Of a DNA stretch of 64,000 bases, positions 1 through 60,931 are shown piece after piece. The notes beneath the pieces are model-generated. The model did not search any database, had not been told where the DNA came from, and saw only the letters and a program-made list of their open reading frames with translations. This DNA comes from Candidatus Omnitrophota bacterium (GTDB lineage: Bacteria; Omnitrophota; Gorgyraeia; Duberdicusellales; 4484-171), in the NCBI GenBank assembly GCA_003154195.1, contig PMCS01000029.1, positions 132,547 to 196,546 of the forward strand, written 5' to 3'. The translations under genes were made by a program, and so were the position numbers. Numbering within the stretch: position 1 is the stretch's first letter; every line of letters begins with the position of its first letter.

Positions 1-475
1 TAAAAAATCTTCTTCGTCTTCGCGCCCGGGCGTACGTAAATGGGTATGCAAATCGATAAACCCGGGAAAAACATGTTTTCCTTTGGCGTCAATTACTTCG
101 TCAACCGGCTCCGGCGGCGTAATATCCTTGGCAACCTTAACAATCCGGGTATTCGCGGTTAAAATATCCGCTTCGAAGATATTATCGGCATTTACGATTG
201 TGGCATTCTTTATTAATATTTTCATAATAAATTATATCGCAGATAATCGCTGATTAGAAGAAGCTGATGATCACAGATAATCTAAAATCCCAAGCGCTAA
301 ATTTTAATGGCCTGAACAAAAACCGTCTTGGTCATTCGGTAATTGAAATTTAGGATTTTCCCGCCCCTTATAATTATGATTTAGCGGGATCCCGCAAAAG
401 GCGGGAATTTGGAATTTGGTATTTAATCATTTATCCGCGATCATCTGCATCTTTTCATCTGTGATCATCTGCATT

Positions 476-1420
476 TTATTCCACTTCCACCAATTCTCTC
501 TTCTGCGTCCCGACTAAATATAAAACGGCCATACGCACAGCAAGCCCGTTTTCCGCCTGTTTCAAAATAAGCGGGTGGACTTGTTCTTTTAAAGAAGAGC
601 TTATCTCGATATCCCAATTGATCGGGCCAGGATGCATAATAATCACGTCTTTTTTTGCCCGGCGCAAACGCTCCGGCGTCAGGGCAAACCGATCCAGATA
701 CTCGCGCATCGTGGGGAAAAAACAGGAAGTCTGGCGTTCTTTTTGGATGCGCAACATGATGACCACGTCGGCGTCTTCGATCGCCTTATCAAAATCGTAG
801 GATATTTTTACGCCTAAATTTTGGAACTCGTAAGGGATAAGGGTCGATGGACCGCAAACTGTAACCTTGCCGCCGAAACGTTGAAACCCGAAAATATTCG
901 AGCGCGCCACGCGGGAATGCATAATATCGCCGACAATCAAAACGTTGAGATTTTCGACGTTTCCCCTTACTTCCTTAACCGTAAACATATCCAACAACGC
1001 CTGGGTGGGATGCTCGTTTCTTCCATCTCCGGCGTTGACGATACTGGCCTGGGTGTATTTGGTAAGCGTATGCAGGGATGTGCTCGATTCGATACGGATA
1101 ATCATAATATCGGGGTGATACGTCTCTAAATTTTTTATCGTGTCGATAATGGATTCTTCTTTGGCCAGGCTCGATGTAGAAACGGAAAAGTTGACCACGT
1201 CGCCGCTTAAACGCTTGGCCGCCAGTTCAAAGGAAGTACGCGTGCGGGTGGAGTTTTCAAAAAATAGATTAAGCACGGTTTTGCCCCGTAACGCCGGGAC
1301 TTTCTTGACTTCGCGCTGGGAAATCTCTTTAAACGACGCAGCCAGATTAAAAACAGTTTCGATCTCGTCGCGCGATAAGTCCTTGATCCCTAAAATGTGT
1401 TTTTTCGTCCACTGTTCCAT
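476..1420 (-). CDS. pyrB: aspartate carbamoyltransferase catalytic subunit
   Basis: 314 aa; STRTR and HPTQ carbamoyl-phosphate/aspartate binding motifs; adjacent to pyrR. Confidence 0.9.
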   Translation of the reverse strand: MEQWTKKHILGIKDLSRDEIETVFNLAASFKEISQREVKKVPALRGKTVLNLFFENSTRTRTSFELAAKRLSGDVVNFSVSTSSLAKEESIIDTIKNLETYHPDIMIIRIESSTSLHTLTKYTQASIVNAGDGRNEHPTQALLDMFTVKEVRGNVENLNVLIVGDIMHSRVARSNIFGFQRFGGKVTVCGPSTLIPYEFQNLGVKISYDFDKAIEDADVVIMLRIQKERQTSCFFPTMREYLDRFALTPERLRRAKKDVIIMHPGPINWDIEISSSLKEQVHPLILKQAENGLAVRMAVLYLVGTQKRELVEVE

Positions 1421-1533
1421 ATAATTTATTAAACGCAGATGATCACAGATTAGAAGAAGCTGATGACCGCAGATAAAACAATTAAACTATATTATTATTT
1501 TAATGATTATCCGCGATCATCTGCATCATTTAA

Positions 1534-2082
1534 TCAGCGATTATCAGTGTTTCTCAAAACAACCACTTCATCCTTCCCATCCACTTCCTGCAAATGAACC
1601 TCCACGCGTTCGCCCGCATTGGTAGGGATGTTTTTCCCGACAAAATCCGCTCTTATCGGCAGCTCACGATGGCCCCGGTCAACTAAAACCAAAAGCTCGA
1701 TTCGTTTCGGCCGGCCGAAATCCAAAATCGCGTCTAAAGAAGCTCTCACGGTGCGACCGGTAAAAAGCACGTCGTCTACCAGAATCGCCACTTTCCCGCT
1801 TAAATCAAAATCTATTTTAGTTTCTTTTACTACCGGCTTAGGCCCGATGGCCGTAAGGTCGTCGCGGTATAAAGTTATATCTAAAATCCCTAAATCAATA
1901 TCGTAATTTTCCAACTCTTTTATGATATTTTTAATACGTTTAGCCAGATGCACGCCGCGGGTCTGGATCCCGATTAAAACGATATTCTTCGGGTCGAGGT
2001 CTTTTTCCAAAATCTCGTGGGTAAGCCGGTAGAGCGTGCGTTTGATATCTTCGCCGGTAAGGATTTCTTTTTGATTATTCAT
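1534..2082 (-). CDS. pyrR: bifunctional pyr operon regulator / uracil phosphoribosyltransferase PyrR
   Basis: 182 aa; PRTase signature VAILVDDVLFTGRT; typical PyrR length; upstream of pyrB. Confidence 0.85.
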   Translation of the reverse strand: MNNQKEILTGEDIKRTLYRLTHEILEKDLDPKNIVLIGIQTRGVHLAKRIKNIIKELENYDIDLGILDITLYRDDLTAIGPKPVVKETKIDFDLSGKVAILVDDVLFTGRTVRASLDAILDFGRPKRIELLVLVDRGHRELPIRADFVGKNIPTNAGERVEVHLQEVDGKDEVVVLRNTDNR

Positions 2083-2484
2083 ATAATGAGACTTAGCCGA
2101 ACTAGCATGTACTCATGCTTAGTGAGGCTGTAGTCGAATTACCCAGCACTAATTTTGCCGTAGCAAAATTAGTGCTGGGTTTGAAACTTCGTAAAAAATA
2201 TCGGCACCCGCTTCGCGGATGAAAAACAACAAAAATAACCGAGTATTAAAAAATTTATTCGAGACGCAAAAAAATAACCCCGTCCTGAAAATTTCCAGAA
2301 CGGGGCTGTTTTATCGGGTTGATAAACCGCATTGTATGCATTTAAATTATCCTTGCCGGCCTCGCAGGACCAGCTTAAAGGTTAGTTAGTTTTCCCGACA
2401 AAATACCGCAAGAAAACTAACTAAATATACACTACCAAAGGCTGTATGTCAAGACAAATGAAAAAAAAAATGTTTTTGGTGTAA

Positions 2485-20010: not shown

Positions 20011-20255
20011 AATTTGGATTGCCTTAGTGAATTCCCACCGACTTTGTCGGTGGTTTAGTATAATAAAACTAAGCCCCGCCGTTTCACGGCGGGCCAAGTT
20101 TTATTACCCGGCGCTAATTTTGGTGTACCGAAATTAGCGCCGGGCTAATTCGACTACCACCTCCCACTTCGCCCCCGCCATCCCATAGATGGCGAGGTCT
20201 CGTCAATTCGTTGAACGAATTGAGGGACTTCGGGCTTGTGTTCGGTGAAGTCTCA

Positions 20256-35838: not shown

Positions 35839-35974
35839 TGTTATTCCGCTTCGTTGCTTGGAATAAAAATATGCTTTGCGCATTTTTATTCCACTACGCG
35901 GGATTAATCCGACTACAGTTTTTTCCTCCGCGTGTGGCGCTTGGAAAAAACTAAGTCTCATTAAGGAGGGAAAG

Positions 35975-40966: not shown

Positions 40967-41094
40967 AGATATTTTTCCATATCTTCATGCCCAAAGACAA
41001 AACGTTAAATTTTAAAACCCGCCCTTTTATAATTTGCTATGAATTCACTCTATATTTTGGTAAAATACCTCTAGAAAAATAGATTATAGACTGA

Positions 41095-41212
41095 CCCCGC
41101 CCTTTTGGCTGGGTGGTTAGATAAAAAAGCGGTTCTATTGTAATTCCAAAGCGGTTATTATAAAGAAAAGCTTAATTTACCAATAGCGCCAAAAGGGCGG
41201 GGTTCAATTCGA
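41095..41212. repeat. long hairpin repeat (CCCCGCCCTTTTGGC...~90 nt...GCCAAAAGGGCGGGG), copy 1
   Basis: Second copy at 41815-41937; the pair flanks the Lrp/AsnC gene. Confidence 0.75.
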
Positions 41213-41273
41213 CTACACTCGTTTTCTGCGCCTTTGGCTTGAAAACGAGTAAGTTTCATTGAGGGAGGTTACT

Positions 41274-41756
41274 ATGGACGATATTTTAGAGATATTGGAG
41301 CAAAACGCGCGGACATCAATGGAAGATTTGGCTAAACTTACCGGAAAAACCAAAAAAGACGTGGCGGCGGCGATAAAAAATTATGAGAAGAAAGGGGTAA
41401 TTGTAAAATACAAGACCGTCATCGATCGAAGCAAAACAAAAAATAACGGCGGAGTAACCGCGCTCATCGAAGTCAAGGTGACGCCGCAAAAAGATGTCGG
41501 TTTTGACGGCATCGCCGAACGCATCTACAAATTTCCCGAAGTAAAAAGTTGCTACCTTCTTTCGGGGACGTACGATTTACTCCTTTTGATCGAAGGTAAA
41601 GATATCCATACGGTAGCCAATTTTGTTTCGGAAAAATTGGCGCCACTCGATTCGGTAAAGGGCACTTTCACCCATTTTATGCTTAAGAAATATAAAGAAG
41701 ACGGCGTAATGATTGCGGGCGAGGAGAAGAATAAACGATTGGCGATAACGTATTAA
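41274..41756 (+). CDS. Lrp/AsnC family transcriptional regulator
   Basis: N-terminal HTH (ILEILEQNARTSMEDLAKLTG) and RAM/ACT C-terminal domain; GAGGGAGG RBS. Confidence 0.8.
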   Translation: MDDILEILEQNARTSMEDLAKLTGKTKKDVAAAIKNYEKKGVIVKYKTVIDRSKTKNNGGVTALIEVKVTPQKDVGFDGIAERIYKFPEVKSCYLLSGTYDLLLLIEGKDIHTVANFVSEKLAPLDSVKGTFTHFMLKKYKEDGVMIAGEEKNKRLAITY

Positions 41757-42079
41757 ATGAGACTTCGATTTTTCCAAGCCCGAAGGGCGCAGGGAAAATC
41801 GGTAGTCGAATTAAACCCCGCCCTTTTGGCTGGGGTAATTGGATAAAGAAACGGTTTATTACAATTTTAAGGGAGTCATTTTTAAAAAAAGTCTAATTTA
41901 ACGATAACGCCAAAAGGGCGGGGTTTTCACCGCCTTCCTTAAATAATTATTTTAGGGAAGCGGGATCCCGCCAAAGGCGGGAAATTCGCAGACGGCCTTG
42001 GCATCTAAAATGTCAAGGCCTATGATTTAAGAAATTTGGTAAAATTTCCTAAATCATCTGCTCATTAAAGGAGGTACAC

Positions 42080-59793: not shown

Positions 59794-60789
59794 ATGATTA
59801 AAGAAATTGCTACGCCAAAATTAAAAAATCCCGTATGCATCGCCGCCTGGCCGGGGATGGGTGAAGTCGCCTACCGTGCCGCGATTTTTTTAAAAGAAGT
59901 CATGGGGTTTAAAATGTTCGCCAAGCTGGAAGCGGCGGAGTTTTTTAAACCCGCGGCGGTGTTTGTGGAAAAGGGCATTGTCAGCCTGCCTTCGATGCCG
60001 GCGGGATTCTTCTATTACCTCAAGGGAAAACATTTTCCCGATATCATCCTGTTTATCGGCGAAGCCCAGCCGCCCCTGGAATACGCCGAAGACCTCTCTT
60101 ATTCTCTGGTAAATTTCCTGAAAAAATATAAGACCAAATTTATCTTTACCTTTGCTGCCAAGCCGGAGTCGATCGACCATAAGGGTGATTCTTTGGTCTG
60201 GATGGCGGGGACGCATCCGGAAGTCCTCAAAGACTTCGAAAAATTTCATTTAAAGATTTTAAGCGAAGGCCAGATCAGCGGCCTTAACGGGATTATTCTG
60301 GGCGCCGCTAAAAGTAAAGGCATCAAGGGGACCTGCCTTTTGGGCGAGATACCTTTTTACACGGTACAGATAGAAAACCCCAAGGCTACCCACAGTATTC
60401 TTAAGATTATGAACGAGTATCTCCAGCTTAATCTGAATCTCGCGCCCTTGCAGGAAAGAGTAAAATTTATCGAACAGGAAATCGATAAACTGATCGATTA
60501 TTTAAAAGGAGAGGGCGATGGCGCCCAGCATCCTTCTGTCCCCAGCAGCGGCCCGTTGCCGTTAAGCGAAGACGATATCGAAAAAATCAAAAAAGACTTG
60601 GCCGGTTACAGCAAATTACCCCAGTCGGCGCGGGAAACCATTGAGGTGCTGTTTAAGGACGCGCAGAAAGATATCGCCAAAGCCAACCAATTAAAAGGAG
60701 AGCTTGACCGCTGGAACGCCTACAAGGAATACGAAGACCGCTTCCTCGATTTATTCAAGAAGAAAGACAAGCGCGACGAGACCCATTAA
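59794..60789 (+). CDS. PAC2-family (proteasome-assembly-chaperone-like) protein
   Basis: NPVCIAAWPGMGEVA N-terminal signature; family 2 repeat begins right after its stop. Confidence 0.55.
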   Translation: MIKEIATPKLKNPVCIAAWPGMGEVAYRAAIFLKEVMGFKMFAKLEAAEFFKPAAVFVEKGIVSLPSMPAGFFYYLKGKHFPDIILFIGEAQPPLEYAEDLSYSLVNFLKKYKTKFIFTFAAKPESIDHKGDSLVWMAGTHPEVLKDFEKFHLKILSEGQISGLNGIILGAAKSKGIKGTCLLGEIPFYTVQIENPKATHSILKIMNEYLQLNLNLAPLQERVKFIEQEIDKLIDYLKGEGDGAQHPSVPSSGPLPLSEDDIEKIKKDLAGYSKLPQSARETIEVLFKDAQKDIAKANQLKGELDRWNAYKEYEDRFLDLFKKKDKRDETH

Positions 60790-60931
60790 TGAGACTTAGA
60801 TTTTCTCAAGCGCGAAGAGCGCAGAGAAAATCTGTAGTCGAATTAACCCCGTGGAGTGCGATGAAAATATGCGAAGCAGATTTTCGTCGCGGGTAACGAA
60901 GCGGGGCAGTAAATTTGATTATTGGGTGCCC

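Follow-up and report, generated by a model that had tools for sequence, protein, structure and literature searches.

The window analysed here is a 64,000-nucleotide stretch of contig PMCS01000029.1 from a Candidatus Omnitrophota bacterium. At its left end lies a pyr operon on the minus strand, in which pyrR, pyrB and the start of pyrC (from position 225 downward) follow one another and are separated by two blocks of a repeated 16-nt motif, referred to below as elements e1 and e2. The closest named relatives of its PyrB are from Candidatus Omnitrophota, and the contig recurs, with an identical sequence across the pyr region, in several metagenomes of groundwater or sediment type. Upstream of pyrR lies a full-length match to the PyrR binding site (RF00515, cmscan of 1-2600; E 1e-5 and 52.2 bits, below the gathering score of 54). 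The coordinates of these features are collected in Table 1.

Table 1. Features of the pyr region and of the small hairpin module found in e2, with positions in the window
Feature	Position	Strand	Remarks
pyrC (dihydroorotase), 5' part	1..225	-	428-aa product on contig L001; start codon 12 nt past the end of e2
e2, pyrB-pyrC spacer	238..473		16-mers 239-254, 263-278 (+); loop 279-432; 16-mers 433-448, 457-472 (-)
Small hairpin module GCGGGATCCCGCAAAAGGCGGGAA (GCGGGATCCCGC-N-AAAGGCGGGAA)	384..407		inside the e2 loop
pyrB	476..1420	-	314 aa, intact, between e1 and e2
e1, pyrR-pyrB spacer	1434..1549		16-mers 1435-1450, 1459-1474 (+); loop 1475-1508; 16-mers 1509-1524, 1533-1548 (-)
pyrR	1534..2082	-	182 aa, PF00156
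Copy of a second repeat, UAAUUCGACUAC ... AAGUCUCAUU	2086..2190	-	separates the attenuator from the pyrR start codon
PyrR binding site (attenuator), operon leader	2270..2385	-	RF00515, model positions 1-115
Terminator hairpin with T-run, inside the leader site	2307-2276	-	from a search for terminator-like hairpins
Sigma-70-like promoter candidate, TTGACA-17-TATATT	2424..2452	-	11/12 consensus matches only; upstream of the attenuator
Further copy of the e2 hairpin module (24 nt)	41960..41983		upstream of a small Cys-rich open reading frame

The window was searched with the 16-mer GCWGATGATCRCRGAT (the motif GCWGATRAYCRCDGAT), allowing up to three mismatches. This returned 13 matches where 1.6 were expected, a number reached by none of 100 shuffles, and it bears out the initial annotation of this DNA in reporting a motif that flanks pyrB in both orientations. 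Where that annotation spoke of nine or more copies we count eight true ones, all within the two spacers; the remaining five matches are isolated, carry two or three mismatches, lie elsewhere in the window and are at chance level. Each element consists of a direct pair of 16-mers, a loop and an inverted pair, with a start-to-start spacing of 24 nt in every pair. The arrangement is thus the one first described, while the unit sizes given then as ~250 and ~130 bp are corrected to 234 and 114 nt. Element e1 (114 nt, loop 34 nt) fills the 113-nt pyrR-pyrB spacer (1421-1533), its flanking bases being C (1434) and G (1549), and e2 (234 nt, loop 154 nt) fills the 250-nt pyrB-pyrC spacer (226-475). The last four codons of pyrR (T-D-N-R) and its TGA stop (1534-1548) coincide with the outermost 16-mer of e1 (1533-1548). 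PyrR C-terminal tails vary among relatives (..SKKNVK, ..VIKK, ..IGESN, ..QTKEN), and that of the window is derived from the element.

The arms are 40 nt long. Each consists of two tandem copies of the 16-mer RCAGATGATCRCAGAT, which is itself composed of two CRCAGAT heptamers 10 nt apart, that is, one helical turn. Folding of the pyrR-pyrB spacer, which had been proposed as a check, gives a strong hairpin on the mRNA strand (e1, -42.3 kcal/mol, z -5.1 vs shuffles), and the same holds for e2 (-85 kcal/mol, z -5.75). Both hairpins are long and imperfect, and they fold equally well on either strand. No strand bias of G-U pairs, of the kind that distinguishes RNA- from DNA-level structure, is present in e1 or e2, and the Rfam search for a known RNA family returned only sub-threshold plant microRNA look-alikes. 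The e2 loop has no match outside the source organism's own contigs.

Two observations on the arms stand apart from this anatomy. The best complement of each arm sits in the other element and not in its own: 242-282 complements 1505-1545 at 85%, and 430-479 complements 1428-1477 at 84%. Among these complements is a perfect 16/16 pair flanking pyrB, which in the mRNA would leave the entire pyrB ORF (open reading frame) in a loop. Gene conversion, a past rearrangement or simply the closeness of both arms to the consensus are possible origins of this complementarity. Regarding the motif itself, the suspicion that it might be a frequent methylation- or restriction-related word did not hold: the 64 kb contain no 16-mer apart from those of e1 and e2, and they are poor in GATC. 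The depletion is about two-fold in the window (123 observed vs 242 expected from base composition) and hints at GATC-directed restriction or methylation pressure in the source organism.

A third unit had been placed at 41940-42060, upstream of the small Cys-rich ORF. The shared 24-nt hairpin is indeed there (two matches to the module in the window vs 0 expected, with a central CCCGC able to pair with either neighbour), and a comparable module, GGCGGATCCGCC..GGCGGAAA (L053:1165-1205), lies in the loop of another element of the family (L053:1125-1224). Membership in the family did not stand: there is no 16-mer in 41900-42075, only a 9-nt fragment, ATCATCTGC, at 42052-42060. The region was rejected as a third element, since it has only the 24-nt hairpin and this fragment in common with e2.

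The history of the two pyr blocks is clarified by comparison with five relatives whose PyrB proteins are 78-89% identical to that of the window (89%, 86%, 79%, 78%). In these, pyrR, pyrB and pyrC abut or overlap: the junctions are a 1-nt gap, an ATGA overlap of 4 nt or a gap not exceeding 11 nt, and the repeat is absent from either pyr junction (loci L054-L059). The comparison suggested at the outset thus reveals empty sites at both junctions and, because the relatives' genes abut or overlap without the repeat, identifies both blocks as insertions: as judged from these loci, e1 and e2 are inserted at the pyrR|pyrB and pyrB|pyrC junctions, respectively. Identical elements are present in all eight contigs of the source organism's own population. 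The converse arrangement, in which pyrB would be the passenger of a cassette, was rejected: on the mRNA strand the bracketing is -- pyrB ++, and the position of pyrB is ancestral.

The same comparison bears on regulation. The operon's near-canonical PyrR leader is intact upstream of pyrR, and the elements are not attenuators. The relatives carry the same leader site directly upstream of pyrR (47-52 bits). As the initial annotation had noted, no canonical PyrR loop is visible in the pyrR-pyrB spacer: the RF00515 search was blank at 1421-1533, and likewise at 226-475, with E up to 10, and neither spacer contains a minus-strand terminator-like site (stem plus U-run). The further proposal that the element replaced, or now constitutes, the PyrR leader fails, with the leader located upstream of pyrR. 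Because the relatives have essentially no pyrR-pyrB spacer, no attenuator has been replaced by an element.

Elements of this kind are dispersed well beyond the pyr operon. Two more copies lie on the same contig, 3-5 kb beyond the left end of the window (L001:14437-14626 and L001:15527-15697), and their arms align with those of the pyr copies while their loops differ. One is flanked by an MJ0043_C-domain gene and a PilZ gene, the other follows a flavodoxin-like gene; four copies thus fall within ~6 kb, and there are none in the rest of the window (~62 kb). When one genome for each of 185,579 species was scanned for two motif copies 24 nt apart, 45 loci were obtained, 22 of them in Omnitrophota metagenome-assembled genomes (MAGs), often several per MAG. 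Among the others, MAG labels include Elusimicrobia, Planctomycetia, Nitrospirales and Calditrichota; in cultured genera the matches have a single motif only and are chance-like. Among 2.9 million viral contigs there were seven double-motif matches, none with the nuclease gene described below.

Many of the Omnitrophota loci are ++/-- quadruplets, usually of 83-100 nt with a loop of 4-22 nt, located in tiny gaps between housekeeping genes, and some overlap the last codons of a gene, as at pyrR. The base just outside the arm is C in 64/67 arms, with a weaker A at -2, and farther out the sequence is only A/T-rich; the conserved arm end therefore reads C-RCAGATRATCRCAGAT (C-RCAGATRAYCRCAGAT).

A gene is associated with these arms. 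At locus L009, an ORF of 128 codons is bracketed exactly by a ++ arm and a - arm: it starts at the ATG in the GCAG-ATG-ATC-GCA-GAT of a 16-mer, and its TGA stop falls in the inverted ATCTGTGATC. Its product is a GxxExxY protein (TIGR04256, E 6e-32; PF13366, E 4e-32). Full-length cassettes are made of arms bracketing the gene for a 125-aa GxxExxY PD-(D/E)XK nuclease, and three more genes (L060, L063 and L065/L066) have the order ++ ORF --, some with adjoining runs of ORF-less hairpins. One GxxExxY gene is accompanied by ~five upstream tandem hairpins in one metagenome (L065:1442-2521) and by three in another (L066:1762-2521), which suggests ongoing expansion or contraction.

The reading frame of the gene extends into the arms in many members of the group. 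We found 383 homologues with 72-92% identity in Omnitrophota, Nitrospira-labelled and other metagenome bins, and motif statistics were computed on the best 120 of these. A match of the M[IVNST][TA][DN] type (MITD, MIAD and similar) lies within the first 45 residues in 96/120. At least two such N-terminal copies are found in 21 homologues, and 19/23 of the successive spacings are 8 codons (24 nt). Some C-terminal tails (..NDICDHL and ..YLRSSVINQRSS, for example) are the inverted arm in translation, and the PDF..E[IV]K catalytic motif is kept in 119/120. Cassettes with called or annotated neighbours are all co-oriented with both of them, and they are often found in conserved operons (fabD|X|fabG, acpP|X|fabZ, radA|X).

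More distant members of the family have comparable borders. Nine loci with distant GxxExxY genes (33-55% identical), on plasmids or chromids of cultured bacteria, were examined, and related heptamer or 9-mer arrays (CRCRGAGGA, CACAGAGA, CACACGGAT, CGCGGAT and CGCGARGG, for example) flank the gene at seven of them; CRCRGA-type arrays are found in Bacteroidota, Spirochaetota, Gemmatimonadota and Pseudomonadota. Bacteroides finegoldii has three CRCRGAGGA upstream of its gene and three inverted repeats downstream, Bernardetia has two CACAGAGA repeats on each side, and in Treponema saccharophilum CACACGGATTCG is paired with CGAATCCGTGT. Gemmatirosa carries two separate genes, each adjoined by ORF-less hairpins built from three units of CGCGGAT or of CGCAGAGGA. 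In Sphingomonas the upstream side reads CACGCGAAGG-CGCGAGGA-CGCGAAG and the 3' end CTTCGCGTG. The two sides are mutually inverted except in a Fusobacteria isolate, where CAGATTTAATCCGTG occurs on both sides in direct orientation. No flanking array was found at the Persicobacter and Prevotella loci. The variant of the heptamer differs between groups: Omnitrophota and Nitrospira-labelled MAGs have CRCAGATGAT at a period of 10 nt, Bacteroides and Gemmatirosa have CRCRGAGGA at a period of 9 nt.

The GxxExxY family is common across phyla, PF13366 being listed as of function unknown. No solved structure could be assigned to it by sequence; its best structural matches are DNA nucleases. A role as a member of a defence system was considered and rejected, with only a weak Cas4-like match (E 0.002), and an association with phages was likewise rejected, tblastn finding no match in 50,697 phage records. 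Searches of the literature for the motif strings, for GxxExxY/PF13366 and for Omnitrophota repeats returned nothing relevant, so that the link between array and gene is undescribed as far as we could find; a paper that names GxxExxY mentions it only in passing.

Based on the above data, we propose, with a probability of about 0.8, that the pyr blocks are gene-free members of a dispersed family of hairpin-forming elements whose arms are the ends of GxxExxY cassettes, and that they are not a pyr leader. Since the same arms bracket GxxExxY genes elsewhere, the pyr copies would be ORF-less relatives of the cassettes: they have the phased, inverted CRCRGA-type heptamer arms of the proposed class of cassette ends, and they lack its TIGR04256/PF13366 gene. 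The heptamer arrays would serve as protein recognition sites, and the GxxExxY nuclease, acting in trans, would be the most economical candidate for spreading both the cassettes and the ORF-less copies, by a route leaving no target duplication. Within the pyr operon, e1 and e2 would act as selfish spacers that uncouple the translation of three formerly coupled cistrons, e1 supplying pyrR with a new 4-residue tail and a stop, and their long stems may be processing or stability sites in the polycistronic mRNA.

Several observations weigh against this proposal. No GxxExxY homologue is present in the 64-kb window or in ~84 kb of the source organism (L001-L008), and the loops of the ORF-less elements contain no remnant of the gene (all ~0 bits), so that only the arms are shared and a derivation of these elements by deletion is unsupported. 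To our knowledge there is no precedent for a 125-aa PD-(D/E)XK protein as a stand-alone transposase. Target-site duplications, sought in 23 full elements under three boundary definitions, were found in 0/23 at 4 nt or more and in at most 1/23 at 3 nt. Partner arms do not covary, the identity of an arm to its own partner being 12.5/16 vs 12.75 for random partners (p 0.96). The labels of the MAGs outside Omnitrophota may be binning errors, and that the elements alter pyr expression is a conjecture. The absence of covariation has a further consequence: the 16-mer is conserved as a sequence and looks like a protein binding site, with the hairpin as a by-product.

That consequence is of direct relevance to an explanation at the RNA level, in which the elements would be excisable or processed stems, like 23S rRNA intervening sequences or bulge-helix-bulge introns, and GxxExxY an RNA endonuclease cutting the stem. 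The invariable co-orientation of the cassettes within operons, whereby they are transcribed, and the long imperfect stems with bulges formed by the arms are both in keeping with it. We nevertheless regard it as unlikely, given arms that do not covary, strands that fold equally well and a protein whose closest structural matches act on DNA.

Bacterial extragenic repeats offer a second model, namely repetitive extragenic palindromic (REP) elements and their hairpin-forming doublets (REPINs), spread by a RAYT (REP-associated tyrosine transposase), with GxxExxY genes merely landing in or next to them. REPINs are described in PMC3337134 and PMC3116915 as extragenic hairpin-forming inverted doublets with many copies and no target duplication. 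Our elements likewise consist of two inverted repeats and a spacer able to form a hairpin, are extragenic, occur in many copies per genome and leave no target duplication. The resemblance extends to the REPIN/RAYT systems of Pseudomonas and enterobacteria, which are short, non-coding and presumably mobilised in trans by a gene that is present once and bordered by those repeats. A GTAG or CGTC tag defines the two REP superfamilies (PMC3733652). The present ends read (A)C-RCAGAT without either tag, and the REP assignment was rejected on this point. Moreover, the arms differ from REPINs in being tandem 16-mer pairs of phased heptamers, and the associated gene encodes a 125-aa PD-(D/E)XK protein (GxxExxY) and not a Y1 transposase, in many copies and not in one. 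No transposase was noticed among the ORFs listed beside 11 solo arms, which were neither domain-scanned nor searched for Y1 enzymes. The start and stop codons of the GxxExxY genes lie inside the motifs, which is not easily attributed to chance landing, and the heptamer arrays track the gene family across phyla, their sequence changing with it. A RAYT-driven origin hence appears quite unlikely.

The initial annotation had called the units MITE-like, after miniature inverted-repeat transposable elements, and classical MITEs, as deletion derivatives of a DDE-transposase insertion sequence (IS) with two transposase sites per end (IR/DR-like, with inverted and direct repeats), form a third model. 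The designation holds insofar as the elements are small, non-coding, dispersed insertions with terminal inverted repeats, each end having two direct sub-repeats. Their multiple dispersed copies, the empty sites in relatives and the difference between L065 and L066 also agree with the copy number and polymorphism expected of MITEs. It does not hold for the target-site duplication, absent from the 23 elements, or for the parent: the loci retrieved (~330 kb) revealed no IS ending in such arms, the sole gene between arms being GxxExxY. Without a target-site duplication and without a transposase-encoding IS sharing its ends, the element was rejected as a classical MITE, an origin that we consider very improbable.

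Least of all can the repeats be taken as cis-regulatory for pyr, whether as an attenuator RNA, PyrR-responsive but divergent or of another kind, or as operators for a DNA-binding regulator, an idea which draws on their position between pyr cistrons, their strong RNA folds and helically phased motifs resembling protein binding sites but which is already largely refuted by spacers with neither RF00515 signal nor U-tract terminator, by relatives that lack the spacers, by the same motif at unrelated loci (fab, heme, trp and cell-envelope genes) and by the intact canonical leader. The PyrR attenuator occurs in the operon leader, whereas the repeat elements do not match its model and occupy sites that are non-intergenic in relatives.

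Other known systems resemble the elements only in part. Correia/NEMIS (Neisseria), ERIC and RUP are bacterial MITEs inside operons. They are similar in their length of 100-250 nt, their terminal inverted repeats, their place between co-transcribed genes, their mRNA stems and their polymorphism; our elements differ in having no TA or other duplication and no parent IS, and in that only the arms are conserved, the loops being unrelated. Tc1/mariner transposons are eukaryotic DDE elements with a TA duplication and arms of ~230 bp. Their IR/DR ends, as in Sleeping Beauty, likewise place two direct repeats in each terminal repeat as protein sites, with no relation to our elements in sequence or enzyme. 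In integrons, every cassette of the array beside intI carries at its 3' end an attC site with R''/R' boxes (RYYYAAC ... GTTRRRY). This class was rejected on architecture, as here the ORF is inside the hairpin, the copies are scattered among housekeeping genes and only the C at -1, with the weaker A at -2, is conserved. Rickettsia palindromic elements offer a likeness in their tolerated insertion into reading frames, as the arm can be read through in one frame (QMITD...) and e1 contributes the pyrR tail and stop; the Rickettsia elements lie in-frame inside genes, whereas the pyr elements are located at gene ends and junctions.

It is worth noting that a second structured repeat, unrelated to the 16-mer element, is also present in the window, with 6 copies vs 0.26 expected: 2086-2190 (-), 20098-20205 (+), 35850-35962 (+), 41160-41262 (+), 41756-41850 (-) and 60788-60900 (-). 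Its insertion before pyrR is absent in relatives, where 5-41 nt separate the PyrR site from pyrR. The single-stranded parts (UAAUUCGACUAC ... AAGUCUCAUU) are conserved, and the stems are variable but always complementary: an alignment of 44 sequences reveals between 11 and 26 double compensatory changes at each of seven stem pairs, and GACU is paired to AGUC. Metagenomes contain at least 117 such stretches, often several per contig, and Rfam gave no match. An ORF on the same strand starts 0-22 nt past the repeat in about one quarter of cases, often with a Shine-Dalgarno sequence. The hairpin sequence AAACCCCGCCCTTTTGGC and its complement occur four times around ORF 41259-41756 (41094-41216 and 41813-41925), within copies of this repeat. 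The second repeat looks like an undescribed structured RNA or a structured recombination site.

Returning to the 16-mer element and its GxxExxY cassettes, we tentatively extend the proposal to the protein family as a whole, a step that we consider possible and also open to considerable doubt. GxxExxY proteins (TIGR04256/PF13366), a large multi-paralogue family, could be the sequence-specific nucleases of an unrecognised class of minimal mobile cassettes. Such a cassette would consist of a promoterless gene of ~125 codons between inverted arrays of a recognised heptamer; it would reside inside host operons and spawn ORF-less hairpins, and the heptamer variants would reflect co-evolution of protein and DNA. 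At the pyr locus itself, the findings show that an ordinary PyrR leader has been kept and that the repeats are insertions, probably selfish, which split three formerly coupled genes. For the family, the conserved border motif provides a testable hypothesis on the recognition target of GxxExxY proteins and on how their genes multiply. Annotators could also recognise such hairpins in uncultured phyla and not mistake them for regulatory RNAs.

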